Positions 1,644-26,503 of a stretch of DNA of 64,000 nucleotides are shown here, piece by piece. Both the position numbers and the translations under genes were made by a program. The notes beneath the pieces were generated by a model. It made no database searches. It was not told the DNA's origin and was given only the letters and a program-made list of their open reading frames with translations. How positions within the stretch are numbered: position 1 is the first letter of the stretch; every line of letters begins with the position of its first letter. Origin of the DNA: Candidatus Bathyarchaeota archaeon (lineage in GTDB: Archaea > Thermoproteota > Bathyarchaeia > Bathyarchaeales > Bathycorpusculaceae); contig CAWHXY010000006.1 in NCBI GenBank assembly GCA_963833575.1, positions 128,001-192,000 of the forward strand. The letters run 5' to 3'.

Positions 1644-1882
1644 CAAAGCATGTCAGTAGTGATATCTCCCGCAATATTTCCCCTTTTTTTGATAAGCACG
1701 AGGCAAATAGGAAACTCCGTTTTGCCATAGCATCTCTCCAGGGAAAGGTAGAGAGCTCGATCTGGAAAAGACGCCTTCAAACGGCTCTAATTATCAGGGA
1801 TGAGCTCCTGGAGCATGGTTACAAGTGGCAAGCCGATAGGATCGATAACTGGATCCATAGGCTCCAGGAAAAGGAGGTTTGA
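1640..1882 (+). CDS. E1 ORF1, 3' part (start codon supplied by the other end of the element after circularisation)
   Basis: Open frame ...DKHEANRKLRFAIASLQGKVESSIWKRRLQTALIIRDELLEHGYKWQADRIDNWIHRLQEKEV*, homologous to E2 ORF 18004..18282. It has no start codon and is bounded by a TAA at 1637-1639 in the integrated state. Confidence 0.8.
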   Translation, partial: SSKHVSSDISRNISPFFDKHEANRKLRFAIASLQGKVESSIWKRRLQTALIIRDELLEHGYKWQADRIDNWIHRLQEKEV

Positions 1883-1885
1883 GCT

Positions 1886-2215
1886 CTGGAGCATAGAATT
1901 AGAGTTTTTTGCCCTGCCTGTATCGATTTGATACCCGATTTTTGGCATGGATCTAGTCAGGATTGGTATAAAGCTCTCGAGGCCGTACATGGCCTTCCTT
2001 TCCCTCAGTGGTTACTTACTGCTTTGGAGCACGAATTTGAGCATGGTTACGACAGATCACACCTGACACAGATCAGCGATTCAGTCAAACACAAACGATA
2101 TCCAGCTAAGTTTCCATGGAGGCTTAAGCTGAAGGATCCAGGGGTTCCCGGGCCTGGAAAAGTCTTGCAGGCCGAAGGCCTGACCTCTGAGAGAAGAGAG
2201 GAGGGCTCTTTCTAG
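1886..2215 (+). CDS. E1 ORF2, hypothetical (track start 1928; possible CTG start at 1886 adds a CPAC motif)
   Basis: AGGAGG at 1872-1877 precedes an in-frame CTG. The C-terminus LQAEGLTSERREEGSF is shared with E2 ORF 18282..18473. Confidence 0.5.
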   Translation: MEHRIRVFCPACIDLIPDFWHGSSQDWYKALEAVHGLPFPQWLLTALEHEFEHGYDRSHLTQISDSVKHKRYPAKFPWRLKLKDPGVPGPGKVLQAEGLTSERREEGSF

Positions 2216-3190
2216 TTGGCAGCCAAATACATGCTGGAGCAAGAAGGCAGCTTCACTTTCATGAGGCCTGACTCGATCGAGTGCAGGATCGTAACCTGCA
2301 AACATTATGATGCCTGCAAAAGCGTTGGCGAAAAGTCGGGTATCCTGCCTAAAGCGAAGTCGATTTTAGAGGTTTTGGGCCTCGATTGGCAACTGCCAGG
2401 TCATGGCAAGGCCTATGATGATTGTGGATCCTGGAGGTACAGGGGTTGCTTAGACGTCTATTCTCACGTGCAGAATGAGCTGGATCAGAGCATCAAGGAA
2501 AAGATCTATGTTGAGTGGTATCATCGCAGCTGTGTGAGGGCCGAGTGTCCGATCTGCTATGAGAAGTGGGCTGGGAAGGAGGCTGCTAAGATCGAGCATC
2601 GTCTAAAGTACTTCTGGAAATATGGCAAGGTTATCCATGTGACCGTTTCACCGTCAGAAAAAGACGCTGTTAACATGCCTTTTGAGAAATTGATCGCAAA
2701 AATGTATCGGATAGCTAAACAGAGAGGTTTGAAAGGTGGTTCTTGTATTTGGCATCCCTGGAGAGAGCACGATAATGGATCATGGTATTTCTCGCCCCAT
2801 TTCCACGTTCTAGGCTTTGGATGGGTGCGAAACACTAAAGAGGGCTTTGAAAAGGATGGTTGGTTAGTGAAAAATATCCAGGATGGCAAGAAGGAAAGAT
2901 CAGTTTTCCGCACGGCCATGTATCAACTAAGCCATTGTGGGATCAGCAAAAATCATAGGCCAGTTACCTGGTTTGGAGTTTGCAGTCCAGCTGCTAAGGA
3001 AAAAGTCAACGTGCCTCCAATGGAGAAAGAGAAACACTTGTGTCCAGCTTGCGGAGCTGAGCTAGTACAACTTAGGTATTTTGGCTTGGAGGATCAGCTG
3101 CCAGATCGAGAGGAGAACGCATGTGCCTGGCTAGATCCTGGAGAGAACTGGGCAGAGTTCCAGCCCTCCAGGTATGGAGATGAAGGGTAA
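2216..3190 (+). CDS. rep: Rolling-circle replication initiator (HUH endonuclease Rep) with Zn-binding motifs
   Basis: Motif I-like VIHVTVSP, HUH motif PHFHVLG, motif III-like YQLSH tyrosine, and Cys motifs CVRAECPIC and CPACG. Confidence 0.82.
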   Translation: MAAKYMLEQEGSFTFMRPDSIECRIVTCKHYDACKSVGEKSGILPKAKSILEVLGLDWQLPGHGKAYDDCGSWRYRGCLDVYSHVQNELDQSIKEKIYVEWYHRSCVRAECPICYEKWAGKEAAKIEHRLKYFWKYGKVIHVTVSPSEKDAVNMPFEKLIAKMYRIAKQRGLKGGSCIWHPWREHDNGSWYFSPHFHVLGFGWVRNTKEGFEKDGWLVKNIQDGKKERSVFRTAMYQLSHCGISKNHRPVTWFGVCSPAAKEKVNVPPMEKEKHLCPACGAELVQLRYFGLEDQLPDREENACAWLDPGENWAEFQPSRYGDEG

Positions 3191-3351
3191 TGTTCAGAGT
3201 TCAGATTCGCCGAGGTAGTGGATCCAGGGCCAGGATCCAGATTAAGATCTGTGGTGATTGTGGTTTTTGGGTTGGCCGTTGCCTTTTAGGTGAGGGAAAC
3301 CGTTTTGCTGGATCTGAGTCATGTGGTAGATCTAAACCTAGGGAGCTGTGA
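3190..3351 (+). CDS. Small Cys-rich protein (53 aa, not in ORF track)
   Basis: ATG overlaps the Rep stop (TAATG). MFRVQIRRGSGSRARIQIKICGDCGFWVGRCLLGEGNRFAGSESCGRSKPREL. Conserved in E2 at 19646..19804. Confidence 0.75.
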   Translation: MFRVQIRRGSGSRARIQIKICGDCGFWVGRCLLGEGNRFAGSESCGRSKPREL

Positions 3352-3355
3352 GATA

Positions 3356-3652
3356 GTGGCCAGGGCACATGATTGTATCTTAACAGTTACTATTAGAAAG
3401 AGGCTGTTGAAAGAGATCAGAGATAAGCGGTTGTTGTCGTTGAATTTTCTTGAGAGATTGAGAACTCAGGAAGCGGATCCTGTGGATCTCAGCTGCTTTA
3501 AGTGTAGCCGAAAGGTTAGAGGTGGCTCATGGATCCATGTGATCAGAAGCTCCTATAGAGTGCGAATCTATCATCTCAAGTGTTTTGAGGGATCCTTTGT
3601 TGATGCTCACAGAAGTAACTGTGATCAAGCTTCTGGGAGGGTTGAAAACTAA
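3356..3652 (+). CDS. Zn-finger protein (CxxC...HxxC)
   Basis: GTG start at 3356 matches E2 MARATDCILT. Contains CFKC and YHLKC. Confidence 0.75.
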   Translation: MARAHDCILTVTIRKRLLKEIRDKRLLSLNFLERLRTQEADPVDLSCFKCSRKVRGGSWIHVIRSSYRVRIYHLKCFEGSFVDAHRSNCDQASGRVEN

Positions 3653-3653
3653 A

Positions 3654-3866
3654 ATGCCAAAAGGTGAAGGTACTGCTGGAGGCATCATGGAGATAATTAA
3701 GACTCCGTTGGGCATCATCATTTTGTTTATCATTATGTTGGTGCTAGCTGGCTTGAGTATTGCCTCAGCTATCTCAGGAGCCTTAACCGCTGCAGCTGTT
3801 AGCTCAGCTGGGTTGTTGGTTGTAGTTGTGCTCCTGGTAGTTGTCAAAGTATTAGGGAAATCTTAA
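3654..3866 (+). CDS. 70-aa hydrophobic helical-hairpin protein, candidate major capsid or pilin-like protein
   Basis: MPKGEGTAGGIMEIIKTPLGIIILFIIMLVLAGLSIASAISGALTAAAVSSAGLLVVVVLLVVVKVLGKS. Two hydrophobic segments and a basic C-terminus. Identical protein in E2 despite 10 synonymous substitutions. The capsid role is an inference. Confidence 0.65.
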   Translation: MPKGEGTAGGIMEIIKTPLGIIILFIIMLVLAGLSIASAISGALTAAAVSSAGLLVVVVLLVVVKVLGKS

Positions 3867-3870
3867 GCAG

Positions 3871-3891
3871 AAAGGCTCAGAATTGAGCTTT
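3871..3891 (+). terminator. Hairpin after the candidate capsid gene
   Basis: AAAGGCTCA-GAA-TTGAGCTTT imperfect inverted repeat followed by a pyrimidine-rich tract. Same sequence at 20316-20336. Confidence 0.45.
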
Positions 3892-4154
3892 ATTTCCTCA
3901 TTCTCCCTCATTTTTCCGTTAATTAACATCTTTTAGGCTCCAGGAGAGGGGTTTTTGACTCTCTTAGGGTAGTCAGTTTTGATCAGAAATTGGCCAAGTT
4001 TCTTCAATCTTTTGCGTACGTGAGAAATTTGGGCCCCTTTATTATTATATTATGTATATTAGGTAATCACAAAAAAAATAAATATTAAAAAATGCTTAGT
4101 AGAATTCAATTTGGGGTTGAATGTTGAAATGGAGCTCAGTTTGGTGGTATCTAA

Positions 4155-4436
4155 GTGAGAGAGTACAGTAATGGCTTCTCTGTTAAGCTAACAGATGAGG
4201 AGCAAGCAAGCTATGAGAGAGTTCTCAGTTATTATAAGGCCGTTGATCCTTCTCGATCAAAAGCTTTCAGGTTGTTGCTGAGGGCGCTGGAGTTGGAGAT
4301 CTCCAGGCAATCTCAGAAGGCCTATTGGAGTAACACCGAGTTTGATCCTCCCAGGGCTGAACCAAGCCATGACGTAACAATCAGTTCTGAGGAGGAGTTC
4401 CTGGAGAGAGAAGCAAAGGACACCTGGACTGAGTAG
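4155..4436 (+). CDS. Ribbon-helix-helix-like DNA-binding regulator
   Basis: N-terminal FSVKLTDEEQ strand-helix followed by SRSKAFRLLL, with an acidic tail. Identical protein in E2. Confidence 0.55.
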   Translation: MREYSNGFSVKLTDEEQASYERVLSYYKAVDPSRSKAFRLLLRALELEISRQSQKAYWSNTEFDPPRAEPSHDVTISSEEEFLEREAKDTWTE

Positions 4437-4439
4437 GGC

Positions 4440-4686
4440 AAAAGTAATATCCATAAAGGCGTTATTATTGATCAAGCAGCTGAGGCCAGCTGCATGGCTC
4501 CAGGAGGATTTAAGATCTTGAAACCGTCTTTTTCTTCCTTTTGGAGCCATCCAATTTTAACTATTTTTGTCAATTGTGAAATAGGTCTAAAATCGGACAT
4601 AGTGGGTAAAAAGTAATATCCGTTTGATGGGCTTTTGTGTCCATTTTGTTTATAAGTAAAAAGTAATATCCGTTTCATGGACTTTT
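4440..4686 (+). promoter_or_regulatory. Direct repeats upstream of the integrase (operator or iteron-like) around a TATA-like box
   Basis: AAAAGTAATATCC at 4440-4452. The longer GTAAAAAGTAATATCCGTTT(G/C)ATGG(G/A)CTTTT occurs at 4606 and 4656 (50-bp period) with TTTATAA between them. Confidence 0.6.
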
Positions 4687-4749
4687 CTAAAAACTGTAGA
4701 TGTTAAAAGCCTTGACTTTGAATAGTCCATCAAGGCTTCAAGATCTAAA

Positions 4750-5925
4750 ATGAGTGCTGATTTAGCTCAAATTTCAAGTTCAAGTAACAAAACCAGCTCA
4801 GCTCCTCAGTGTCCTAAGTGTGGTTTTCGTGTAGTTCTTGATGGCCATCGTTACTCCTGGGGCCAGGATATCCAGCTTTTCAAGTGCAAAAATAAGTCTT
4901 GTCGTTATAGGTTCTCAAACGGACATAGTAGTTCAAAAACTAATCCAAAGATAGTTAGATCTAACCAATTAGGCGTCAGATTAGAGGCGAAAAAATTGGT
5001 TTCTGCAACAGAAATAAAGACTGTTGTGGGAGATAAAAATGACAATCTGATCACGTACGCATGGCATGAGAAGAAACGTGGAATAGCTGATACAACCATC
5101 ACACATAGAGTTTTCCGTTTGACTGTTCTTATGAACAGAGGTGCTAACTTAGATGATCCAGAGAGCTTTCTATCGGTTTTGATGACTGAAAATTTTTCAG
5201 AGTCCTCAAAATTCCAGTATTTGCAAGCTTACCTGAGCTACGCCAAAGCGTTCAAAATTCCTTTTGAGAAGCCAAAAATCCACTATGAACCGAAAGTCCA
5301 GTACACGCCAAAGCCCTATGAGGTAGCAATCTTAATTCAAAATCTTGGTAAACAACAGAGAGCTTTAGTTCAAACGATGGCGACTACAGGTGCGAGAATT
5401 GGAGAAATGGCCAGGTTAGAATGGAGTGAAATAGATTCAGTAGGACAGATAGTGTATATCAACCATCCAGAGAAGGGCAGCAGAGCTAGAAAAATCCATG
5501 TGCCTGAGCAAACCATCAAATTCCTAGAAGGATTGCCAAAAACCTATGATCCTTACGTTTTCAACCCAAATAAGCGAACCTTACAAGCTACCTATGCCAG
5601 ATCCAGAGACTCTATCGCTAAAAGGCTTGATATGCCGATCCTCAAAAAAATCCATCATCACTCTTTCCGTCGATATTTTGCAGATCAGACCTACAAAAAA
5701 ACCCAATTTAACATCCGAAAAACACAGCTGCGAATGGGCCATAAACGATTGAGCTCTACAGAGAAATACTTTGACGATTTTGACGATGAAAACGTCACTT
5801 TTGAAACAGCTAGAGCTTACACAGTAGAGGACGCAGAGGAGCTGAGGCAACTGGGCTATGAGCTATATGATACTGGAATAGACGAGAACGGCAAAGCTGT
5901 GAAGTTGTACAGTAGGATGGCTTAG
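4750..5925 (+). CDS. int: Tyrosine integrase with N-terminal Zn ribbon (E1)
   Basis: CPKC..C..C N-terminus. Catalytic TGARIGE (R), KGS (K), HSFRR (HxxR), MGHK (H), EKYF (Y). Confidence 0.93.
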   Translation: MSADLAQISSSSNKTSSAPQCPKCGFRVVLDGHRYSWGQDIQLFKCKNKSCRYRFSNGHSSSKTNPKIVRSNQLGVRLEAKKLVSATEIKTVVGDKNDNLITYAWHEKKRGIADTTITHRVFRLTVLMNRGANLDDPESFLSVLMTENFSESSKFQYLQAYLSYAKAFKIPFEKPKIHYEPKVQYTPKPYEVAILIQNLGKQQRALVQTMATTGARIGEMARLEWSEIDSVGQIVYINHPEKGSRARKIHVPEQTIKFLEGLPKTYDPYVFNPNKRTLQATYARSRDSIAKRLDMPILKKIHHHSFRRYFADQTYKKTQFNIRKTQLRMGHKRLSSTEKYFDDFDDENVTFETARAYTVEDAEELRQLGYELYDTGIDENGKAVKLYSRMA

Positions 5926-5953: not shown

Positions 5954-6388
5954 TCAAAGCTGGTACCCCGCTTGAATAGCGGCGTTATCAACTTTTGCAG
6001 CCATTTTACTATTGTAAGTTAATTCGTTGATCTTTTCTTCAGAAAAACCGAATTTTGTGCCAGCCACTGCTAAGTCGTTTGGCGTTTTCTTTGAGGTTTT
6101 TCCTTTTCCGCCGCAGACCGCTATGCCGTGCTCTTTTGGTGATAGAGCGCTTTTGAGGATGCCTGTGACGACTGTTGTTACTCCTGAGCTGTGCCAATCG
6201 TAAGCTAAAACGCAGCCGAATGCTTGAAACCAATACGGGTCCGATAAACGTTGCATGAATTTGGATGTGCCCTGCTCTTCAATCATGATGTTTGCTATTT
6301 CTTTGGCTAATTTGCGCATTCGCACAGTTAGCCATGAAGGAGCTTTTCCGCCATGAAGAGGCAGGTTTGCAACGCCCGTTCTATACAT
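5954..6388 (-). pseudogene. N-terminal fragment of the DUF763 family gene interrupted by E1
   Basis: MYRTGVANLPLHGGKAPSWL...LSDPYWFQAFGCVLAYDWHSSGVTT...AKVDNAAIQAGYQL, then a TGA formed at the E1 junction. Confidence 0.9.
5956..5961 (+). repeat. E1 attR core (AAAGCT)
   Basis: Identical to 1638-1643 and lies at the end of the DUF763 N-terminal fragment. Confidence 0.85.
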
Positions 6389-6689
6389 TACTTTCACTAT
6401 CAGTATTCGCTCAAAGAATAATGAGGCATCCTGTTTTGAATGTTATTGAAACATTTACGGCAGTTTTCAACTATACAGAATGGAAAATGCAGGCTCACAG
6501 ATTTGAATAATTATCTGTAGGACGTAGATACGACTGCTTTAGCATCTAATTGTTAAATTCCACAGTTCTCTTGTTTGTACAATGCCTCATTTGTTTAAAC
6601 CCAATTGGTTATGTGTACAACTGTAGTTTCAGGTATCATTTAGAAAGGTTATGTCGATGTTTTGCCTATTAGTGTTTGAGCGATGAATA

Positions 6690-16714: not shown

Positions 16715-17776
16715 TTAGGCAATGAATTTTGCGAAGTCTTTTTCTGCAACCTCAATCGAAACCATTTGCGGTGGACGTTTAAACGCGTATGCACAAATTG
16801 GGTCAATTGCACCTTCAAGTTTCTTGTTTAATGCCAATTTCATTGCACGGACTACATCAAAGAGCACACTACCAGCGTTTGGCGCATCAACAGTTTGGAA
16901 TTTGAGATCAATCTTCATGGGTGCATTACAGAAGTAGACGCCGCTTATCCAGAAGTAACTGTCACGCTTGTTTTGCAGAAAATCAACATAATCCGTGGAT
17001 CCAGCTACAATTTCAGCTTTATAGGGTATTGAAGCAGCTACTGACTCAGTTTTTATTGTCCGTTTTGCATCACGACTGCGTTCCTGCGTATCAACGGATT
17101 CTGTTCCTCCACCAACATCAAGTTGGTAAGTCTCAACTATCTTCACCCCACTGTCTGAAAGCAGTTTAAGCAGTGTTTTATGCAATGAAGTTGAGCCCAC
17201 TTGATCTATTAGGTCGTCGCCAACAAGTGGGAGTTTTGCGTCAGCAAATCGTTTTGCCCATGAAACATCACTGGCTATGAATGTTGGTGTAGCATTTACG
17301 AAACCGCATCCTGCAGCCAAGGCTTGTTCTGCGTACCACTGCGAGGTTTGCGTAGCTCCACTTGGCAACAGGTTAACCATGATTTCAGCGCCCGAATCCT
17401 TGAGAACCTTGACAACGTACACATCAGTCACATTGCTAACTTTTACGATAGCTTTACTCGAATTTCCCAACCCATCCAGCAGCGGTCCCTTGTTAACCTT
17501 GACGCCTGTTAAAGGCACATCAGCTACTTTAGGAGCATTATTAGGCAAAGCAAAAATGGCTTCCGAAAGATCTTTTCCAACTTTGCGTTCATCCACATCA
17601 AAAGCCGCAACTACCTCAATGTCTTTAGGGCTTAAACCAGCCAAAACGGGGTTGCGAAGCCCAACAAAATCTTCAGATTTCTGGAATTTTGAGTAGTATT
17701 GAATGCCTTGAATAAAGGCTGAAGCGCAGTTTCCAACGCCGATTAATGCAACTTTAACTTTGGGCACATGTAGCAC
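16715..17776 (-). CDS. ino1: myo-inositol-1-phosphate synthase
   Basis: IGVGNCASAFIQG, VAAFDVDERKVGKDLSEAI, GDD, YQLDVGG, DAPNAG. Confidence 0.9.
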   Translation of the reverse strand: MLHVPKVKVALIGVGNCASAFIQGIQYYSKFQKSEDFVGLRNPVLAGLSPKDIEVVAAFDVDERKVGKDLSEAIFALPNNAPKVADVPLTGVKVNKGPLLDGLGNSSKAIVKVSNVTDVYVVKVLKDSGAEIMVNLLPSGATQTSQWYAEQALAAGCGFVNATPTFIASDVSWAKRFADAKLPLVGDDLIDQVGSTSLHKTLLKLLSDSGVKIVETYQLDVGGGTESVDTQERSRDAKRTIKTESVAASIPYKAEIVAGSTDYVDFLQNKRDSYFWISGVYFCNAPMKIDLKFQTVDAPNAGSVLFDVVRAMKLALNKKLEGAIDPICAYAFKRPPQMVSIEVAEKDFAKFIA

Positions 17777-17891
17777 CTTGCTTGGCTTCTCTATTTGCGA
17801 ATCCCCTTTAAAAAGCTACGGTGTTCACACTCTTGAATAAAACACTCAGCGAAACCCTTTCTGATTTTCAACACTTCTTTTTGCAACTTCA

Positions 17892-17907
17892 TAAGAAACG
17901 CTTATTA
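17892..17907 (+). repeat. E2 attL (TAAGAAACGCTTATTA)
   Basis: Identical to 22466-22481, with an internal dyad TAAG-aaacg-CTTA. Confidence 0.9.
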
Positions 17908-18003
17908 TCCAAATTTGGGTGACATCTCCCGCGCCAAACCCTCCCTTTCTTTTTCATTAATGTTCTGCTGTAGTCTTTTTGCTTACCTAAATTTTTCGGA
18001 GGT

Positions 18004-18282
18004 TTGTCCTTGAGCGGTAGCTGTGAACCTCTTTTTTCTGATTTTTACAACAAGGATTGGGCCAATCGAAAACTCCGTTTTGCGATCGCAACTCTTCAGG
18101 GAAAAATTGAGATCTCTATCTGGAAAAGACGCCTTCAAACGGCTCTAATTGCCAAGGATGAGCTCCTGGATCATGGTTACAAGTGGCAAGCCCAGAGGAT
18201 CGATAACTGGATCCATAGGCTCCAGGGCCAGGAAATTGCTAAGGATGAGGCCAGGATTCAGGGCCAGGAGGCCAGGAAATAA
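18004..18282 (+). CDS. E2 ORF1, hypothetical
   Basis: Homologous to the E1 frame at 1640-1882 (ANRKLRFAIA.LQGK...WIHRLQ). Confidence 0.75.
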   Translation: MSLSGSCEPLFSDFYNKDWANRKLRFAIATLQGKIEISIWKRRLQTALIAKDELLDHGYKWQAQRIDNWIHRLQGQEIAKDEARIQGQEARK

Positions 18283-18473
18283 TGAAGGATCCAATCTTTG
18301 GATCTGGCCAGTTAGATATCTGGCCCTGCAGGAGAGGATCTTGGCACCAGGAAAACAATTATTGGTTGATTGAGGCCTGGCCAGCAGCTGCTCAGGATCC
18401 AATAGTTTCCAGGCCCGGGAATTTACAGGCCGAAGGCCTGACCTCTGAGAGAAGAGAGGAGGGCTCTTTCTAA
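18282..18473 (+). CDS. E2 ORF2, hypothetical
   Basis: TAATG coupling to ORF1. Ends in the same LQAEGLTSERREEGSF as E1 ORF2. Confidence 0.55.
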   Translation: MKDPIFGSGQLDIWPCRRGSWHQENNYWLIEAWPAAAQDPIVSRPGNLQAEGLTSERREEGSF

Positions 18474-19424
18474 TTGGCAGCAAAATTTAGGCTGGAGCAA
18501 GAAGGCAGCTTCACTTTCATGAGGCCTGACTCGATCGAGTGTAGGATCGTTACCTGCAAGCATTATGAGGCCTGTAAAAGCGTTGGCGAAAAGTCGGGTA
18601 TCCTGCCTAAAGCGAAGTACGGTTTTGAGGAAATTGATTGGCAGTTACCAGGCCACGGCGAGAAGTATGATGATTGTGGGGATTGGCGGTATCGTGGCTG
18701 TCTTAACGTAGAAGCTCACGGCCAGAATGAGCTCGGTCAGGATGTTGAGGGAAAGATCTGGGTTGAGTGGTATCATCGGAATTGTGGCCGTGCAGAATGT
18801 CCTACTGATTATGAAAGATGGGCTGGGCTTGAAGCATCAAAAATCACGCATCGGTTGAAGTATTTTTGGAAGAGGGGAAAGGTGCTTCATATAACCATTT
18901 CTCCGAGTGAAAAGGACGCTTTAACATTGAGCTTTACCAAATTGAAGGCTAAAATGTACCGTGTTGCAAGGCTGAGGGGGATCAAGGGAGGCTGTGTAAT
19001 TTGGCATCCCTTCAGGGAAAATGATGATGGAACCTGGAGAGTATCTGGCCACTTCCATATCTTAGGGTTTGGGTGGGTTCGAAATGTCAGCCAGGGGTAC
19101 AAAAGTGATGGTTGGTTAGTGAAAAACATCCAGGACGGTCAGAAGGAAAGATCTGTTTTCAGGACGGCCATGTATCAGCTTAGCCACTGTGGTATAAGTA
19201 AAGGAACTCGTCCTGTGGCTTGGTTTGGAGTTTGCAGCTCAAAAATCAAAGTTCCAGAGATTGAGGAAGTTAAGCATCTATGTCCATGTTGCGGAGCTGA
19301 GCTAGTACAGCTTCGTTATTATGGAGATCCTGACGGTCTCCCAGATAAGACTGAAGAGAACGGTTCCTGGTTGGATTCTGGAGATTGGATCGAGAAAGAA
19401 ACAGTGAAATGGAGGAGAGATTAG
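18474..19424 (+). CDS. rep: Rolling-circle replication initiator (HUH endonuclease Rep)
   Basis: VLHITISP, GHFHILG (HUH), YQLSH, CGRAECP, CPCCG. Homolog of 2216..3190. Confidence 0.82.
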   Translation: MAAKFRLEQEGSFTFMRPDSIECRIVTCKHYEACKSVGEKSGILPKAKYGFEEIDWQLPGHGEKYDDCGDWRYRGCLNVEAHGQNELGQDVEGKIWVEWYHRNCGRAECPTDYERWAGLEASKITHRLKYFWKRGKVLHITISPSEKDALTLSFTKLKAKMYRVARLRGIKGGCVIWHPFRENDDGTWRVSGHFHILGFGWVRNVSQGYKSDGWLVKNIQDGQKERSVFRTAMYQLSHCGISKGTRPVAWFGVCSSKIKVPEIEEVKHLCPCCGAELVQLRYYGDPDGLPDKTEENGSWLDSGDWIEKETVKWRRD

Positions 19425-19425
19425 G

Positions 19426-19638
19426 ATGTCTAAACTAGGGAGAAAGATTTGTTGCATCTATAGAAAGGATGCTCGCTGTGTTAGACCATTCCAGGATTTT
19501 CAACGGTGTTTCTTCATTGGAAATCATGTTAGAGCTGGAGAACAATGTGATTTTGACGTTGGAGTATGTTTGTTGGTACCTGAAGCAATTAAAGCTCAAT
19601 ATCTCGCTATTTTAGAAAAAAATGGTTTTCATAGGTGA
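19426..19638 (+). CDS. E2-specific Cys-rich small protein
   Basis: Packed 1 nt after Rep, six Cys residues, absent from E1. Confidence 0.55.
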   Translation: MSKLGRKICCIYRKDARCVRPFQDFQRCFFIGNHVRAGEQCDFDVGVCLLVPEAIKAQYLAILEKNGFHR

Positions 19639-19645
19639 TGATTAG

Positions 19646-19804
19646 ATGTTCGTTAGCATTGAGATTTTAGAGAGTTTCAGGGCCAGGATCCAGGTTAAGA
19701 TCTGTGGTGAATGTCGGTTCTGGGTTGGCCGTTGCCTTTTAGGTGAGGGGAACCGTTTTGCCGGATCTGAGGCTTGTAATAGATCTAGGAGTCGAGATGT
19801 GTAA
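19646..19804 (+). CDS. Small Cys-rich protein (52 aa, not in ORF track)
   Basis: MFVSIEILESFRARIQVKICGECRFWVGRCLLGEGNRFAGSEACNRSRSRDV. Homolog of 3190..3351. Its stop overlaps the next ATG. Confidence 0.75.
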   Translation: MFVSIEILESFRARIQVKICGECRFWVGRCLLGEGNRFAGSEACNRSRSRDV

Positions 19805-20097
19805 TGGCTAGGGCTACAGATTGTATCTTAACAGGTACTAATCAAAAGAGGCTGTTGCGAGAGATTAGACAAAAGCGGTTGCTACCTCTGAATTTTGTTG
19901 AGAGGGTCAGGGATAAGGTTGTGGATCTAGATATCAGCTGTGAGATGTGTGGCCGAAGGATTAGAAAGGGCTCCAGGATCCATGTGATAAGGAGCTCAAT
20001 TAAAGTCAGGATTTATCATCTGTGTTGTTTTGAGGGCTCTTTTATTCATGCTCACAGAAGTAACTGTGATCAAGCTTCTGGGAGGGTTGAAAACTAA
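19804..20097 (+). CDS. Zn-finger protein (CxxC...HxxC)
   Basis: CEMC and YHLCC. Homolog of 3356..3652. Confidence 0.75.
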   Translation: MARATDCILTGTNQKRLLREIRQKRLLPLNFVERVRDKVVDLDISCEMCGRRIRKGSRIHVIRSSIKVRIYHLCCFEGSFIHAHRSNCDQASGRVEN

Positions 20098-20098
20098 A

Positions 20099-20311
20099 AT
20101 GCCAAAAGGTGAAGGTACTGCTGGAGGCATCATGGAGATAATTAAGACTCCGCTGGGCATCATCATTTTGTTTATCATTATGTTGGTGCTAGCTGGACTC
20201 TCGATTGCCTCAGCTATCTCAGGAGCCTTAACCGCTGCAGCTGTCAGTTCAGCTGGGCTGTTGGTTGTAGTTGTGCTCCTGGTAGTTGTCAAAGTATTAG
20301 GGAAATCTTAA
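20099..20311 (+). CDS. 70-aa hydrophobic helical-hairpin protein, candidate major capsid or pilin-like protein
   Basis: Protein identical to 3654..3866. Confidence 0.65.
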   Translation: MPKGEGTAGGIMEIIKTPLGIIILFIIMLVLAGLSIASAISGALTAAAVSSAGLLVVVVLLVVVKVLGKS

Positions 20312-20599
20312 GCAGAAAGGCTCAGAATTGAGCTTTATTTCCTCATTCTCCCTCATTTTTCCGTTAATTAACATCTTTTGAGCTCCAGGAGAGGGGTTTT
20401 TGACTCTCTTAGGGTGGTCAGTTTTGATCGGAAAATGGCCAAGTTTCTTCAATCTTTTGCGTACGTGAGAAATTTGGGCCCCTTTATTATTATATTATGT
20501 ATATTAGGTAATCACAAAAAAAATAAATATTAAAAAATGCTTAGTAGAATTCAATTTGGGGTTGAATGTTGAAATGGAGCTCAGTTTGGTGGTATCTAA

Positions 20600-20881
20600 G
20601 TGAGAGAGTACAGTAATGGCTTCTCTGTTAAGCTAACAGATGAGGAGCAAGCAAGCTATGAGAGAGTTCTCAGTTATTATAAGGCCGTTGATCCTTCTCG
20701 ATCAAAAGCTTTCAGGTTGTTGCTGAGGGCGCTGGAGTTGGAGATCTCCAGGCAATCTCAGAAGGCCTATTGGAGTAACACCGAGTTTGATCCTCCCAGG
20801 GCTGAACCAAGCCATGACGTAACAATCAGTTCTGAGGAGGAGTTCCTGGAGAGAGAAGCAAAGGACACCTGGACTGAGTAG
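20600..20881 (+). CDS. Ribbon-helix-helix-like regulator
   Basis: Protein identical to 4155..4436. Confidence 0.55.
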   Translation: MREYSNGFSVKLTDEEQASYERVLSYYKAVDPSRSKAFRLLLRALELEISRQSQKAYWSNTEFDPPRAEPSHDVTISSEEEFLEREAKDTWTE

Positions 20882-20884
20882 GGC

Positions 20885-21131
20885 AAAAGTAATATCCATA
20901 AAGGCGTTATTATTGATCAAGCAGCTGAGGCTAGCTGCATGGCTCCAGGAGGATTTAAGATCTTGAAACCGTCTTTTTCTTCCTTTTGGAGCCATCCAAT
21001 TTTAACTATTTTTGTCAATTGTGAAATAGGTCTAAAATCGGACATAGTGGGTAAAAAGTAATATCCGTTTGATGGGCTTTTGTGTCCATTTTGTTTATAA
21101 GTAAAAAGTAATATCCGTTTCATGGACTTTT
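20885..21131 (+). promoter_or_regulatory. AAAAGTAATATCC direct repeats upstream of the integrase
   Basis: Same three repeats as 4440-4686. Confidence 0.6.
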
Positions 21132-21195
21132 CTAAAAACTGTAGATGTTAAGAGCCTTGACGTTGAATAAGTCCTTCAAGGTTTCAAGATTTAAA

Positions 21196-22482
21196 ATGAG
21201 TGCTGATTTAGCTCAAATTTCAAGTTCAAGTAACAAAACCAGCTCAGCTCCTCAGTGTCCTGAGTGTAGTTCTCATGAAGTAGTTCTTGATGGCCATCGT
21301 TACTCCTGGGGCCAGGATATTCAGCTTTTCAGATGTAAATCATGTAAGCATAGGTTCTCAAACGGACATAACAGTTCAAAAACTAATCAAAATACTATTA
21401 GATCTAACCAATTAGGCGCTAAATTAGAGGCGAAAAAATTGGTCGTGCTGCCACATAGAAAACATGTCGGCACGGGAGAAGTCACTGCAGAACATGAAGC
21501 ATTGCTTAGAGTTTTTGAAGGTTGGCTACGGAAAGAAGGCTACAACAAAAACTGTTATCCAAACAACGTAAAGACATTGCTATACCTTGGGGCCAATCTT
21601 TTAGATCCAGAGGATGTCAAAGCAAAAATCGCTGATCACAACGTCAAAAACGGAATGAAAATGCAACTTTGCTACAGTTATGAAGCGTTTCTACGGATGA
21701 ACAAAATGACTTGGACGCGACCAAAAAATGGAAAAGGCTACAAACAAGACGAGATTGATCCGTGGATTCCACTTGAGGTAGAGCTGGATCAACTGATTGC
21801 AGCTGCACATAGCAAGCGGATGGCAGTTTTTCTACGGACTCTTAAGGAAACTTTCACTGATCCAAGTGAGGCACTACAGATTGAGAGCCATGACATTGCA
21901 GACAATTCAGTAACGATCAGACATCCTGTTAAGAAACATCGTCCACGAACGCTAGAAGTTTCACCTCAGCTGATTGCAGATCTAAATAGCCTCTCACATG
22001 ATTCAGATCGGATTTTTGATTGCAGATACAGCACTATGATCAGCGGTTTTATTGCGTTGCGTAGGCGTGTCGCTCAAAGAACCCAAAACGACAGAATAAA
22101 CTACATCGAGTTACGGAGCTACAGACATTGGGCTGGAACAATGATTGCAGAAATGTCAAACGGTAATCCAATGTCAGTAATGAAGCTGCTAGGCTTAAGA
22201 CGCATTGAAAATGCTATGAAATACGTTAACATCTGGAAATTGAGCTTCAAAACTGAGACTGAATGGCAATACATGGAAGTTACAACACCTGAAGAACTAA
22301 AGATTGCCTTGCTTGGCGGCTACCAACATGTCATCGACAAGTTTGGAGCTTCATGGTTTAGAAGACCTAAAAGAATTGCCATTGCTATTACACCGATTAG
22401 CCAGCGACCAGATGAACCACAATGTCCCCAGATAGAAACCCCGATTAATAAACGCGAACCTGCATTAAGAAACGCTTATTAA
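21196..22482 (+). CDS. int: Tyrosine-recombinase-family integrase (E2) with non-canonical catalytic residues
   Basis: Shares the MSADLAQ...LEAKKLV N-terminus with the E1 integrase. Core reads KETFTDPSEAL, LRSYRHW, LLGLRRIENAMKY. Its 3' end overlaps attR. Confidence 0.82.
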   Translation: MSADLAQISSSSNKTSSAPQCPECSSHEVVLDGHRYSWGQDIQLFRCKSCKHRFSNGHNSSKTNQNTIRSNQLGAKLEAKKLVVLPHRKHVGTGEVTAEHEALLRVFEGWLRKEGYNKNCYPNNVKTLLYLGANLLDPEDVKAKIADHNVKNGMKMQLCYSYEAFLRMNKMTWTRPKNGKGYKQDEIDPWIPLEVELDQLIAAAHSKRMAVFLRTLKETFTDPSEALQIESHDIADNSVTIRHPVKKHRPRTLEVSPQLIADLNSLSHDSDRIFDCRYSTMISGFIALRRRVAQRTQNDRINYIELRSYRHWAGTMIAEMSNGNPMSVMKLLGLRRIENAMKYVNIWKLSFKTETEWQYMEVTTPEELKIALLGGYQHVIDKFGASWFRRPKRIAIAITPISQRPDEPQCPQIETPINKREPALRNAY

Positions 22483-22743
22483 ATGACGCGGATTAAACCT
22501 TAGAAGCCAGAGGTTTTGGGCGAGTAGATCAGTCTGGCATGATCGCCACGTTGGCATCGTGGAGGTCCCGGGTTCAAATCCCGGCTCGTCCACCAAACAA
22601 TTATTCGTGTTTACGCCTCGAAGGCGACTTATTGCCAATTTAAGGGCATTTTCACAGATTTTTGGCGCATTTAACCCAATTTCATAAGCTAAATTCGCTA
22701 ATTCTGGATTTAATTCAATCGTTGCACTGACTTGTGTTGTCAT
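22465..22743 (-). CDS. CcdA-like/RHH antitoxin-type ORF whose C-terminus runs antisense into the tRNA
   Basis: ATIELNPELANLAYEIGLNAPKICENALKLAISRL resembles CcdA-family proteins. The tail LVDEPGFEPG is the tRNA read antisense. Confidence 0.5.
   Translation of the reverse strand: MTTQVSATIELNPELANLAYEIGLNAPKICENALKLAISRLRGVNTNNCLVDEPGFEPGTSTMPTWRSCQTDLLAQNLWLLRFNPRHLISVS
22466..22483 (+). promoter_or_regulatory. E2 attR coinciding with the probable BRE/TATA promoter of tRNA-Ala
   Basis: Purine-rich AAGAAACG followed by CTTATTAAA, about 35 bp upstream of the mature tRNA start at 22518. Confidence 0.7.
22518..22595 (+). tRNA. tRNA-Ala(GGC), CCA encoded
   Basis: Acceptor stem GGGCGAG/CTCGTCC with G3:U70, anticodon arm CCACG-TTGGCAT-CGTGG, T loop GGTTCAAATCC, 3' ACCA. 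Confidence 0.96.
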
Positions 22744-22939
22744 TTTGTTGATCTCCACGAAATGCACGTGTCTGTTGTCCGGTTAGGACTTTATAGGAAT
22801 TTTGTCCAAGCCTATTTTTTAAGAGGTGACTTTGCAAAGTTTGAAAAGTTGATGACTATGAAATAAGTCGAGAGGACTTTGCAGTTTTATGAAAGACTTA
22901 AGAACCAAGTACGATAATCCAGATAACTGGTGACTTGGC

Positions 22940-24877
22940 TTGCCAGCTCCAAAATACTTGATTCCGCAATTTCTTCATCTCAAGATTAGTAACATGACAA
23001 CTTTTCCACAAGAAAAGAGAATTTCCTTTGATAAGGGAATACACGTAATATTTGGCGGAAACCATTCAGGAAAAACCACAATAGTAAACTCCATAAGATA
23101 TGGCGTTTTCGGCTTATCATCGAGTAGCCTCCCTGAAGGAGTTGAAAAGAGGTATTTTTCATCAAGAATTCAAGAAAATATACGCAATTCTTTAGATATT
23201 AATACTGAGTGTCGTTTGGACAACGTCAAAATAACAACTCATAGAAAGGTTTTCTCCTCAATAAATGCAGAAATTGAAGCAACAATTTCAAAGGAGACAA
23301 AAAACACCTTTTCAATGTCACAAGAAACTGTCGTCCGTGAAAAGGAGTATTATGATAGACTAAGGGGCATTATGGGAAACATCGACGAACAACAACTGGA
23401 TTTTGTTTCAAATCTTATGTTTGCCGATGAAAGCAGACATTATATTCTCTGGAGTAAGAACTTAGAAAACTTTGTAACGTACTTTCTTACATCTCCAGAG
23501 ATTTTTAAAGAATACATGACCCTTGAAACTGAAATAATCAAAACTGACATAGAATTGACAAAGCTTAAACAAGAAAGGACTCAAGGAGTAAACAAACTTC
23601 AAGATAATGAGCGGTTGGAAAAGTCTTTCGAGAGAACATTGAAAGAATTCGAAAAATTGGATATTGATCAAGTAACTGAAGAAATCGAATCTTTGGGCAA
23701 TCAATTAGAAGAGTGCAGAACCAAAGTCGCTGAAGCAAGCAACATTTTGTCAATCAAAATTAAAGACAGATCGGATATTGTTACAAAAATTGCGGAGAAT
23801 AAACATGAAATCGATGAGATAGAAGAAAAATCTGATGATGCGAAAAAAGAACTTCTTAAAGCGTATCTCAATCCGCAAGATAGTGATCAATACCATCTTG
23901 GTAGATATCTTTACCATAAAAAGCAATGCCCTGTATGTTCTGCTGATATGTCTGATGAGATAAACAGTCGTCTGGAAAAGAGAAAATGTCCACTTTGTGG
24001 TCATAGAGACATAGTTGATTACCGAAGTGATGCAAAAACAAGTGATAACCAATTTTCGATTCTCACTGAAAGCAAAGAAAAAATTGTTTCCCTTATGCAT
24101 TCAACCGAAACTAATTTAACTAAAATAGAAGGTCAAATCGAAGAAACAAACATGATTTTAGGTCAAGAACACGCAAGAGAGGTTGCATTGCTCCAAAGGA
24201 GAGCTGAATTTAAATCAATCGAAGAAAGCCTGCTCAGAAGGGAAATAATCCTTGATCAACTAAAGAAAATATCCATGCAAAAAGGAGTTTTCGAAGAAGC
24301 TATTACCGAGATTGATGAAAAAATAGAAAATACAAACGAGAAAATAGAAAAAACAAAACAGAAACAAGACCGTGTAAGAAACGATATGGAATTGGACGCC
24401 AAAACCGCTTTGACAAATGTTCGACAAAGATTTTCCAATTTCTTTGACATAGCCACGAATGGAGAAGAATCGGCAAAACTTACAGAACATTTAATTCCTG
24501 AACTTAACGGTCGTCCAGTGTTTCATTATGACACAGTATCGCAATTTGAACGTACCGTTTTCGATTATGCTTTTAGGATTGCATTGTTGTCTGAATTCGC
24601 AGTAAGAACAAACACTTTCCCTTCACTAATTATTGAAACTCCTGACGAGGTAACTGATGAGTCTTATATACCCCATTTGGCTAAAGCGATTTTCAAGTAT
24701 TGTTCAAATCTTTCTATCGTTGTTACAACGGTTAACACTGATCTAATGAAACATCTACTCAACAATTACAAAGGCGAGGAAAAAAATAGACATTTCACTG
24801 ATTTAGTTTCTAAAGGCACACTTACGCAGAAAAAGTTCTACGAAGTTTCTATCAAGAAATATTTAAGTGAAATTTAA
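22940..24877 (+). CDS. SMC/Rad50-like ABC ATPase with long coiled coil and central CxxC motifs
   Basis: Walker A GGNHSGKTT, coiled coils, CPVC and CPLC, degenerate signature VSQFE, Walker B LIIETPD. Confidence 0.85.
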   Translation: MPAPKYLIPQFLHLKISNMTTFPQEKRISFDKGIHVIFGGNHSGKTTIVNSIRYGVFGLSSSSLPEGVEKRYFSSRIQENIRNSLDINTECRLDNVKITTHRKVFSSINAEIEATISKETKNTFSMSQETVVREKEYYDRLRGIMGNIDEQQLDFVSNLMFADESRHYILWSKNLENFVTYFLTSPEIFKEYMTLETEIIKTDIELTKLKQERTQGVNKLQDNERLEKSFERTLKEFEKLDIDQVTEEIESLGNQLEECRTKVAEASNILSIKIKDRSDIVTKIAENKHEIDEIEEKSDDAKKELLKAYLNPQDSDQYHLGRYLYHKKQCPVCSADMSDEINSRLEKRKCPLCGHRDIVDYRSDAKTSDNQFSILTESKEKIVSLMHSTETNLTKIEGQIEETNMILGQEHAREVALLQRRAEFKSIEESLLRREIILDQLKKISMQKGVFEEAITEIDEKIENTNEKIEKTKQKQDRVRNDMELDAKTALTNVRQRFSNFFDIATNGEESAKLTEHLIPELNGRPVFHYDTVSQFERTVFDYAFRIALLSEFAVRTNTFPSLIIETPDEVTDESYIPHLAKAIFKYCSNLSIVVTTVNTDLMKHLLNNYKGEEKNRHFTDLVSKGTLTQKKFYEVSIKKYLSEI

Positions 24878-25514
24878 TGAAAGATCGAATGAACTCGAGG
24901 AACTTAAAGATCAATTTGCTCTTTGGCTTCTTTTGAGTAAGCTGAAAAGATGCGAATATACAACTCAGCGACTGAAACTCCAAAAGCTTGTTTATTTAAT
25001 TGATATTTTTGGAACAATATTCGAAAAGAAACCAACCAACTACACATTCAATGTATACAAACTTGGACCTTTTTCAAAAGACATTTTGCAGGATATGGAT
25101 CGTCTTGTTTCTGTTGGCATAATAGATGCTAAAGAAATAAAACTTTGGGATCCTAATCACGAACGTTCATTTGAGTACAAGATAAAGAGAGAACCTGAGT
25201 TAAGCAAAATTGCCCCAGCCATTAAACGCGATTTTAGTTTGTTGGAAAGAACTATTGTTTTTACGGTTCAAGCAGTTGGCAATTTTAATAGCGAAGAAAT
25301 AAGAAAACTGGTATATAATGAGCCAAATTATGTTCAAGCTAAAAAACAGGGTTTCATGACAACAATTAATCCTCACTACGAACTCGCTAAACAATTCAGG
25401 GAGTCATCAAGAAAAATTGCTTTTGACCAATTCAAAATGGTCTTGGATGAAGAACAAATTTCTCTGCTTTACTTGGGTTATATGAAGAGTGGAAAATTTC
25501 CACATTTGCAATGA
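24867..25514 (+). CDS. SocA/Panacea (DUF4065)-like protein
   Basis: LKLQKLVYLID...YTFNVYKLGPFS motif. Overlaps the SMC stop codon. Confidence 0.65.
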   Translation: MKFNERSNELEELKDQFALWLLLSKLKRCEYTTQRLKLQKLVYLIDIFGTIFEKKPTNYTFNVYKLGPFSKDILQDMDRLVSVGIIDAKEIKLWDPNHERSFEYKIKREPELSKIAPAIKRDFSLLERTIVFTVQAVGNFNSEEIRKLVYNEPNYVQAKKQGFMTTINPHYELAKQFRESSRKIAFDQFKMVLDEEQISLLYLGYMKSGKFPHLQ

Positions 25515-25520
25515 TAATAA

Positions 25521-26503
25521 ATGAAGAAAGACGCTGTAGACGCTGATTTCAAATGCGCAATGGAAGATTTCATACAGGATTATCTCAATAAATATGGTTG
25601 GCTAATTGATTTATCGAAAAAGTATTTCATTTCTCCCTCCTTGTTTGAAAATATTTTGAAGTTTGTTGAAAGAGTTCCTAAGATGAGAAAAGAGAAGTCG
25701 CCACTTAGTCTAGGCTTGGCGTTCAAAAACAAAGTATTGAATCTTGAAGAACCATTAATGTCTTACAACCCATTTCATATTTCAGAAATGCGCAACTTTT
25801 CCAATCTGAAAAACGCGGTAGCTGGCAATCCACTATGTTACATCTTAGATCCGATCGGCTTGGTAAGTATTGGTCAGGTTCCCAAATCAATGATTTTGAC
25901 ATCTCCTGATCAGACATTAAGGAATTATCTAAAATCTTTAATACACTGACATTTTTTGTTGAAAACTCAATACTTGAGGTATATGACACCGGAAGTTTTG
26001 TTCAAATCAATAGAAACGGACTTTGGATGAAACCATGCATAATGGTGCTAAATGAATTTCAGAGGCAGGGATTCAAACTTGATCTTCTTCAACATGTATT
26101 GCAAATTTGCCTACAAATGTCCTACCTTAACAAGGGCGGCACTTTCGTTTTGACGAAAGATGACCCCCCAAAATTCTGCGTATCAATGATAAAAGGAAGC
26201 GTTTTCAAAAAAACAGAACTTGATCTTTTGCCCCCCACGGAGATAATTGCTTTTGCAGATATTGATGGCGCTGTCATCATAAACCAAAAAGGTGAATTGC
26301 TTAATGTCGGGCAACGACTTTGTCCACCAGACACAACCACAGGGTATTTCGTGGAATCAGGGCGAGGAGCCAGACATAATTTCGCCTCAATGTATTCAAA
26401 AGCAGTAGAGGCTCTTGTTTTTGTAGTTTCCGAAGAAGGCTCAATTTCACTATATTATTCTGGAGATTTACGTGCAAGATGTTTTTCTGAACTTTTTGAA
26501 TAA
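25521..26503 (+). CDS. DisA_N-type diadenylate cyclase with N-terminal extension, split by a 1-nt frameshift near 25918-25921
   Basis: The C-terminal part has DIDGAVII and GARHNFA (DGA/RHR motifs) and VVSEEG. Its frame is open back to 25910 (KELSKIFNTLTFFVENSILEVYDTGSFVQINRNGLWMKP), overlapping ORF 25521..25949. Confidence 0.78.

Follow-up and report, generated by a model that had tools for sequence, protein, structure and literature searches.

Probable site-specific integration of a small plasmid-like element at the BRE/TATA motif of a tRNA-Ala gene in Bathyarchaeia

Introduction

What does an archaeal integrase aim at when its element lies directly beside a tRNA gene and the attachment (att) core contains no base of that tRNA? 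The question is raised by E2, a 4.59-kb stretch (17892-22481) of the window, by which we mean the whole 64,000-nt segment analyzed here (positions 128,001 to 192,000 of contig CAWHXY010000006.1, assembly GCA_963833575.1, Candidatus Bathyarchaeota archaeon); the host sequence searched was the 2.75-Mb Bathyarchaeia genome to which the window belongs. A sequence-only reading had proposed that E2 integrates into the promoter of a tRNA gene instead of the tRNA itself. According to the present analysis, E2 is probably an integrated plasmid-like element that entered site-specifically at a 16-bp core, made up of the B recognition element (BRE) and TATA box of tRNA-Ala(GGC), and not at the tRNA. The location of this core inside the open reading frame (ORF) of the integrase gene (int), and the apparent exchange of a C-terminal tail for a stop codon, are both new relative to the sequence-only reading.

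Results

Borders of E2 and the corresponding unoccupied sites

The 16-base sequence TAAGAAACGCTTATTA occurs as two exact copies in the window, both on the + strand and one at either border of E2 (attL on the left, attR on the right; Table 1), and a genome-wide scan allowing one mismatch returned these two copies and none of the reversed control pattern. By chance, 0.15 matches with up to two mismatches would be expected in the window, and two or more were seen in 2 of 100 shuffles. The junctions were then delimited by comparing window positions 22440-22760 with 40 relatives and the host's own genome, keeping the 19 best non-self loci, all congeneric. Homology of the right flank started at query base 26-28 (window 22465-22467), the left edge of the core, in 13 of these 19 loci; in one (G010) it reached further left because a related integrase sits at that place. 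The left-flank gene, which encodes myo-inositol-1-phosphate synthase and is transcribed away from E2, was found in 14 of the 19 loci and adjoins tRNA-Ala in relatives with empty sites. At three loci (L007, L008, and L012), the stretch aligned to the left flank and that aligned to the right flank had exactly 16 bp in common, so that the repeat is not due to chance; this is the empty-site structure that the sequence-only reading had predicted for relatives. Its more local statements held as well: the core ends 36 bp upstream of tRNA-Ala, whose start ARAGORN places at 22518, a TAAG/CTTA dyad is directly readable within the core, and the tRNA sequence is not duplicated, as judged from a repeat search that found no tRNA repeat near attL. 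Read directly, the core is a near-palindrome in which six of eight mirrored pairs are complementary about a central CG. Reads of one DNA run over the stretch gave short, low-depth contigs of 184-329 bases and no joints, and they carry no information on excision.

At one further locus (L100, genome G002), about 2 kb of other genes without an integrase lie between the synthase gene and tRNA-Ala, and this insert ends at the left edge of the core. Left of the E2 insertion point, by about 70-85 bases, a conserved T/A-rich block on the - strand (17805-17822) precedes the inositol-1-phosphate synthase start by about 30-40 bases; it probably serves as the promoter of that gene and is unaffected by the insertion.

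The core as a likely promoter motif of tRNA-Ala(GGC)

A Gibbs motif search over bases -70 to -18 upstream of all 37 tRNA genes of the host's own genome (12 seeds, two of which tied at the top score with the rest within ~13 units) yielded an A-rich block followed by a T/A-rich block, i.e., a BRE/TATA-like motif, with instances that mostly start between -54 and -44. A run on bases -100 to -1 returned an A-rich pattern without fixed position, and only the -70 to -18 range gave the BRE/TATA motif. The instance assigned to tRNA-Ala(GGC) corresponds to core bases 2-16, starts at -51, and scores 7.1, a value as high as which is encountered 0.09 times per kb and strand. The cores at attL and attR both score 7.1 and are the top matrix matches within E2; at attL, the two bases following the core are TC versus AA in the host, altering the end of the TATA box.

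Of the 19 loci, 17 had the core motif at an unchanged distance from tRNA-Ala(GGC), with unalignable sequence to its left; in the remaining two, which are the most distant, a different BRE/TATA-like sequence stands equally far from the tRNA. A 17-mer search with up to one mismatch detected the sequence in 65 of 101 sampled genomes of the genus, nearly always as a single copy. In archaea, the TATA box usually precedes the transcription start by about 25 bases, which would place the start at the conserved block 22502-22510 within the spacer between core and tRNA. An AT-rich stretch at 22492-22499 was considered as the tRNA promoter and rejected, as it is not conserved and would put the start inside the tRNA.

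The claim that the core reads as BRE plus TATA is thus borne out by the de novo tRNA motif, its position, and its conservation, and the core is, as far as sequence can tell, supported as the promoter motif of tRNA-Ala(GGC). At the level of the motif, we could likewise confirm the prediction that the tRNA promoter would be kept whole at attR, with a second copy at attL pointing into the element; both copies would then presumably act as promoters. Elsewhere in the same genome (contig C2, near position 1631), a motif approximating the E2 core minus about one base, with the last two bases different, lies upstream of tRNA-Gln TTG and could represent a secondary integration site.

The integrase reading frame continues through the core

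The core encompasses the final five codons of int together with two bases of its stop codon; this stop, a TAA composed of the last two core bases and the first host base, falls within the TATA box. At attL, the int frame stays open from the core for 35 codons before a stop is reached. The peptide specified there comprises a G-D-(I/V)-S-R-A motif, a Ser/Pro-rich stretch, and a hydrophobic stretch, and this tail is common to three long-form integrases (P0077, P0078, and P0079), among them the product of the 501-aa int gene of L164, a 33,968-bp IMG/VR record classed with direct terminal repeats. P0078 and P0079 are two of the 27 database relatives returned; most other returned relatives end a few residues past a conserved I-N-K-R block with N-A-F, N-A-Y, V-N-L, or N-I, endings that are encoded by promoter-like sequence in those relatives whose DNA was examined.

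L164 is a free element with a long-form int gene. It carries a single copy of its own 15-base core, inside the int ORF and 43 codons before its stop, and its DNA past the core resembles the left end of E2. Across 27 compared codons of the E2 and L164 tails, 5 are identical, 11 show synonymous differences only, and 11 are non-synonymous, with 13 differences at first, 6 at second, and 16 at third codon positions; this pattern is a coding signature for the tail. Because the frame continues at attL into the conserved tail and because L164 has its core within int, we infer that the int ORF of E2 contains the att site of the element itself (attP) and that a tail of ~35 residues gives way to a stop codon upon integration. 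The integrated gene keeps 445 residues including Y360, with only the tail detached; the short form is presumably active, and the tail may have a role of its own. A comparison of the L164 core with the 101 genus genomes at up to one mismatch gave 20 matches versus ~15 for the reversed control; the single exact match among these genomes has no gene start within 200 bases downstream, and no host target of L164 was found.

A second IMG/VR entry, the 31.6-kb provirus record L165, ends exactly at the stop of an integrase gene with 61% identity whose last bases look similar to the tRNA-Ala promoter core; a single core-like copy was found in the record, at its right end. This suggests that a virus-sized element may use the same or a similar site.

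Integrase family and catalytic residues

The E2 integrase belongs, as a divergent member, to the tyrosine recombinases and bears a zinc ribbon at its N-terminus. The archaeal XerA model matched weakly, PF00589 (Phage_integrase) was matched by 13 of 19 aligned members (best E 1.2e-20) and not by the E2 protein itself at E <=0.01, and a single integrase sequence compared with solved structures retrieved zinc ribbons only. A family profile built from the alignment of 19 relatives matched the XerA structures 4a8e (E 5.3e-8) and 5hxy (E 8.6e-8), as well as HP1 integrase (E 3e-7). In the 19 sequences, Y360, R327, and K263 are invariant and W329 nearly so, and these positions align with XerA box II residues. 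The box I arginine (G-x-R-x-x-E) is replaced: Asp-Pro takes its place within K-E-T-F-x-D-P-x-E (residues 234-242), both in the E2 integrase and in 29 other copies of the survey described below, versus Arg in 56 more distant copies. The second arginine box reads R-x-x-R (R-S-Y-R) in the E2 protein and K-x-x-R in its clade relatives. Despite Asp-Pro at the Arg-I position, the junctions of E2 look like clean site-specific recombination. The three direct repeats just upstream of int may represent arm-type integrase sites, iterons, an operator, or regulatory sites.

Targets of related integrases

Relatives of the integrase were found in 82 of 101 genomes of the genus, with up to 15 matches per genome. 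Our survey comprised 91 copies, namely the best 30 loci, 60 of 120 further places, and E1, a sibling of E2 in the window; the 60 places were taken in list order provided that the match reached approximately residue 400 and that DNA was available downstream, copies at contig ends were excluded, as was one that was heavily broken, and 138 further integrase matches lie outside the surveyed set. The surveyed copies are related and not independent, and the counts accordingly describe the sample and do not amount to a statistical test.

Among the 30 copies with Asp-Pro, none lay within 100 bases of a convergent tRNA 3' end, five had a co-oriented tRNA start within 100 bases, and 18 a co-oriented ORF start within 200 bases; three had neither, and four were truncated and left unclassed. 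By the same limits, the 56 copies with Arg divided into 32 at a convergent tRNA 3' end, two at a co-oriented tRNA start, five at a co-oriented ORF start, and 17 with neither, none being truncated. Five copies were grouped under other residues (one convergent tRNA 3' end, two co-oriented tRNAs, one co-oriented ORF, one with neither, none truncated); E1 was counted here, and direct alignment shows Arg for it. The Asp-Pro clade has at least 10 distinct targets, among them RNA genes, i.e., tRNA-Ala(GGC), tRNA-Ile(GAT), and tRNA-Arg(TCT), and the protein genes for EF-1alpha, ribosomal protein S6e, a P-loop kinase, a radical-SAM enzyme, an HhH-GPD glycosylase, and a JAB-domain protein.

For seven targets, occupied sites were compared with the corresponding unoccupied sites in the window's own genome. 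Homology started no more than 3 bases from the best promoter-matrix match in six of the seven, and the best match scored at least 5.0 in six of the seven, versus 2.8% of random windows, with three of the seven belonging to the training set. At four sites (tRNA-Ala, tRNA-Ile, EF-1alpha, and the kinase gene), the int ORF finishes in 10-20 bases that are themselves homologous to the host sequence of the unoccupied site. As intergenic conservation tends to end at promoters in any case, the true junction is not fixed for those copies in which the int stop precedes the homologous part. A search for attL in related elements covered 16 loci, using exact repeats of at least 12 bases as well as repeats with mismatches, and disclosed in L096 a 12-13-bp promoter-like repeat, 15.5 kb apart, as a second pair of junctions; both junctions are defined for E2 and L096 only. 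The upstream flank of the empty sites of genome G000 was found in two of 12 loci, at the left junction of L096 and at L098, with an integrase present in both genomes compared in the latter case. Overall, the survey of related integrase targets, which the sequence-only reading had suggested as a check, identified upstream, promoter-proximal targeting as a property of the whole clade, which seems to aim at gene promoters and not at the usual tRNA ends.

Replication gene and type of element

All ORFs between the repeats are on the + strand and encode 92 aa, 316 aa, five small products, and the 445-aa integrase (Table 1). No family matches in Pfam, PHROG, or NCBIfam were obtained for the five small ORFs. 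The 316-aa product, a putative rolling-circle replication initiator (Rep), has 76 homologues, all without a named family, and H193, H195, and Y234 as well as several cysteines are invariant in 45 sequences. It matched no family in Pfam, PHROG, or NCBIfam, a pattern scan of IMG/VR gave no relative, and none was present in the phage collection. Its structural model (predicted local distance difference test score, pLDDT, 85.4) gave no Foldseek match at E <=0.001. Fold comparison by VIA-align returned weak matches, all with Z <5: a Helitron transposase (Z 4.6, matching chain residues 497-789), RepB of pMV158 (4.4 and 4.3), SIRV1 ORF119 (4.3), and the Vientovirus Rep (4.1), within a full range of Z 3.4-4.6 for HUH folds, which were mixed with RRM-like folds.

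Three metagenome contigs (L161, L162, and L163, with 2500, 2813, and 2836 bases) carry the Rep gene at 81-82% identity, and no integrase match was found in any of them; in L163, for which ORFs were listed, a homologue of the 92-aa ORF is located directly upstream of Rep. The contigs have exact terminal overlaps of 100-123 bases and are therefore circles of ~2.4-2.7 kb, making them candidates for free plasmids of Bathyarchaeia. E2 is best read as a small plasmid, probably of the rolling-circle type, that carries an integrase-att module. Close relatives of its integrase (61-63% identity) reside on ~30-kb records classed as viral, and the module evidently moves between element types.

Sibling element and neighboring regions

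The sibling E1 (window ~1650-5925) shares 92% identity with E2 over 1.8 kb (E2 19678-21455, E1 3225-5010), including the first ~310 bases of int. Identity over Rep is 74%; the rest of the integrase is 38% identical, has the canonical Arg, and ends at another site. The left end of E1 retains a remnant of the tail-coding motif. Two minus-strand ORFs that flank E1 (937-1728 and 5954-6397) may be halves of one gene; the borders of E1 share only a 7-base stretch, and the frames of the flanking ORFs did not fit.

Directly downstream of the tRNA (22940-25950), the G+C content drops to ~0.34. This region encodes a full-length LmuB-like (Lamassu) SMC ATPase (PADLOC, E 1.8e-23), followed by a Panacea/SocA-domain protein, and in most relatives the homology to that side stops at the tRNA 3' end; the region resembles a second variable island, situated at the classical tRNA-end position.

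Table 1. Positions of E2 features and of the adjoining host genes in the window.
Feature	Position	Strand	Basis or remarks
myo-Inositol-1-phosphate synthase, left-flank host gene	16715-17776	-	Pfam PF01658, E 2.5e-18
attL copy of the 16-bp core	17892-17907	+	Exact repeat; full promoter-like motif, pointing into E2
Integrase C-terminal tail remnant, 35 codons plus stop	17906-18013	+	In frame with the core; tail motif shared
First E2 ORF, 92 aa	18004-18282	+	89% DNA identity to E1; conserved in small circular contigs
Putative rolling-circle replication initiator (Rep), 316 aa	18474-19424	+	H-x-H motif, invariant Tyr
Five small co-directional ORFs	19426-20881	+	ORF list; 92% identical to E1
Three direct repeats, ~27-31 nt, just upstream of int	20871-21131	+	Repeat search; conserved in E1 (4426-4686)
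Tyrosine integrase, short (integrated) form, 445 aa	21145-22482	+	phrog_216, E 2.2e-7; alignment of relatives
attR copy of the 16-bp core	22466-22481	+	Exact repeat; BRE/TATA-like motif of tRNA-Ala(GGC)
Host spacer between core and tRNA	22482-22517	+	Conserved block 22502-22510 (17 of 19 relatives), predicted transcription start
tRNA-Ala(GGC), intact	22518-22595	+	ARAGORN

Discussion

In the mechanism that we propose, E2 would carry as its attP the same promoter motif as the host, positioned inside the 3' end of its own int ORF and pointing in the same direction as all E2 genes, and recombination would take place within this motif common to element and host. Each downstream unit would thereby retain the motif together with its own downstream bases, such that the tRNA would be served at attR and the first E2 genes at attL. 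As a side effect, the integrase would lose its conserved tail and end at a TAA supplied by the host TATA box. If both copies fire, a fixed co-orientation over many targets would be expected, since with the opposite orientation antisense transcription would run into int. The strongest version of this model concerns the entire Asp-Pro clade and is put forward tentatively, with a less than even chance of being correct as a whole: these integrases might carry a working promoter attP within int and swap promoter for promoter upstream of housekeeping genes, leaving both sides with a promoter, and loss of the tail might constitute a built-in directionality or regulatory switch that operates without a separate excisionase. 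The enzyme would then exist in two forms, an episomal and an integrated one, with the conserved hydrophobic tail being removed on integration.

The same data could be read as an integrase that simply recognizes a unique conserved 16-bp sequence, its promoter identity being incidental and neither copy having a transcriptional role for the element. Integrases generally favor conserved single-copy sequences, and the promoter motif is the only conserved stretch in the intergenic region; still, we regard this explanation as rather improbable in view of the survey. All 23 classed Asp-Pro copies with a downstream tRNA or ORF are co-oriented with it (three of 26 have neither), none of the 26 lies at a tRNA 3' end, the targets are as diverse as stated above, and the end of the int ORF falls within the promoter motif homologous to the host in four distinct targets. 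Coding constraint does not explain the fixed orientation either, because a TATA-like 7-mer offers a stop codon in one of its three frames in either orientation. Far less probable, to the point of being negligible, is that the 16-bp repeat represents a target-site duplication left by a transposase-like activity instead of an element-borne att core. A hint in this direction is given by the N-terminal domain, whose match to NF050000, the zinc-binding domain of IS1/IS1595 transposases, has an E value of 1e-5 but falls short of the curated cut-off; the remainder of the protein is a tyrosine recombinase, however, the free 34-kb relative carries one core copy inside its int ORF, and the int frame at attL continues through the core into the conserved tail, which duplication of host sequence would not give.

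Alternatively, the attL copy might be silent, and the Rep genes might be expressed only after excision, by transcription from int across attP. SNJ2 offers a precedent, since its excision rebuilds a replication operon across attP with a start site inside int (PMC13107129). All E2 genes are co-directional, int would be directly upstream of attP in the circle, and the TC that replaces AA behind the attL core modifies the end of the TATA box, all of which would fit such a scheme. On the other hand, the full 15-base motif is kept at attL with an unchanged score, and co-orientation is most easily explained if both copies fire. We thus consider a silent attL unlikely, albeit with a case that deserves to be taken seriously.

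Entry of E2 at the tRNA promoter motif, which we favor, has to be balanced against several points. The integrase lacks the canonical first catalytic arginine, and its activity is assumed from the clean junctions. The promoter and start sites are predictions from motif, position, and conservation. Intergenic conservation normally stops at promoters, so that the homology edge by itself cannot prove that the promoter is what the integrase targets. The kinase-gene target scores only 2.8 on the tRNA-derived matrix. Outside E2, an attL was detected only in L096 and not at 13 other loci within 4-18 kb, and the pairwise similarity of the tails is weak (12 of 33 identities, E 0.001 in a single comparison).

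Archaeal site-specific integration has otherwise been described as aimed at tRNA coding sequence, besides some unexplained intergenic sites. The E2 site would add a new target class, an archaeal intergenic site with a clear identity, namely the BRE/TATA motif of a gene, and, if this held for the whole integrase clade, it might account for part of the 'intergenic' integrations in mesophilic archaea. The Asp-Pro clade also represents a natural test case for catalysis by tyrosine recombinases without the first arginine, and compact integrase-att modules and small replicons might become tools for Bathyarchaeia.

In a full-text literature search, with many subscription papers outside its reach, we found no archaeal integrase aimed at a BRE/TATA motif; for Bathyarchaeia, the same search, with the same restriction, returned virus papers and no description of a plasmid. 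A review of archaeal tyrosine recombinases places most sites in tRNA genes and mentions a few intergenic or intragenic sites that were never tested (PMC8371274). Among the systems covered there, the pTN3-like elements of Thermococcales (SSV-type) are similar in layout, as the element lies upstream of the tRNA body and tRNA expression depends on the element border. The pTN3-type enzymes use the tRNA gene's 5' half, however, so that the core is tRNA coding sequence, the tRNA is subsequently expressed from the integrase promoter, and int is split (PMC8371274), whereas in E2 the core contains no tRNA base, the tRNA still has a promoter motif of its own, and int is left with a whole catalytic part. 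With the 'suicidal' SSV-type (type I) integrases E2 would share an attP within the int ORF and a gene product changed by integration (PMC8371274, PMC7253208); a further resemblance concerns the second arginine box, with K-x-x-R in relatives from the clade and R-x-x-R in the E2 protein. The SSV gene is cut in two and its target is tRNA sequence, and such genes holding their own att site have been described in hyperthermophiles (PMC8371274); E2 has a milder version of this arrangement, in which the catalytic part stays intact, only a tail of ~35 residues, located downstream of the catalytic Tyr, is removed, and the target is a promoter, in a host from a Bathyarchaeia lineage of sediment and soil metagenomes. 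Type II enzymes of the pNOB8 kind have the att site outside the gene and the consensus R...YxxR...Y (PMC8371274). E2 does not belong to this type, since its core overlaps the last five codons and the stop of int, and since the box reads R-S-Y-R, with Arg or Lys and not Tyr at its first position across the clade.

The intergenic elements of Thaumarchaeota resemble E2 in their short att sites and intergenic position: 15 of 68 elements were intergenic, and the att sites had a median of 17 bp (Krupovic et al. 2019, PMC6563490), and several of the intergenic cores in supplementary file 3 of that study are AT-rich. The word 'promoter' does not occur in its main text, and in the accessible part the sites are not analyzed as promoters, and no relation to orientation, the int ORF, or a particular integrase clade is reported. 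In the SNJ2-type haloarchaeal pleolipoviruses, the spacing between the core and the int 3' end is short and fixed (PMC5861418), and upon circularization an ORF across attP arises together with a state-dependent operon (PMC13107129), both reminiscent of E2. The SNJ2 core is the 3' end of tRNA-Met, though, and its Rep belongs to the Rep_trans-like Rep-Arvir family, as opposed to the promoter core of E2 and an E2 Rep with H-x-H and Tyr motifs.

The broader logic would nonetheless be that of classical tRNA 3'-end targeting, reportedly laid out by Williams in 2002: the element bears a copy of the host sequence that it interrupts, and the host function is rebuilt upon integration. What E2 would rebuild is a promoter, and not the end of a tRNA.

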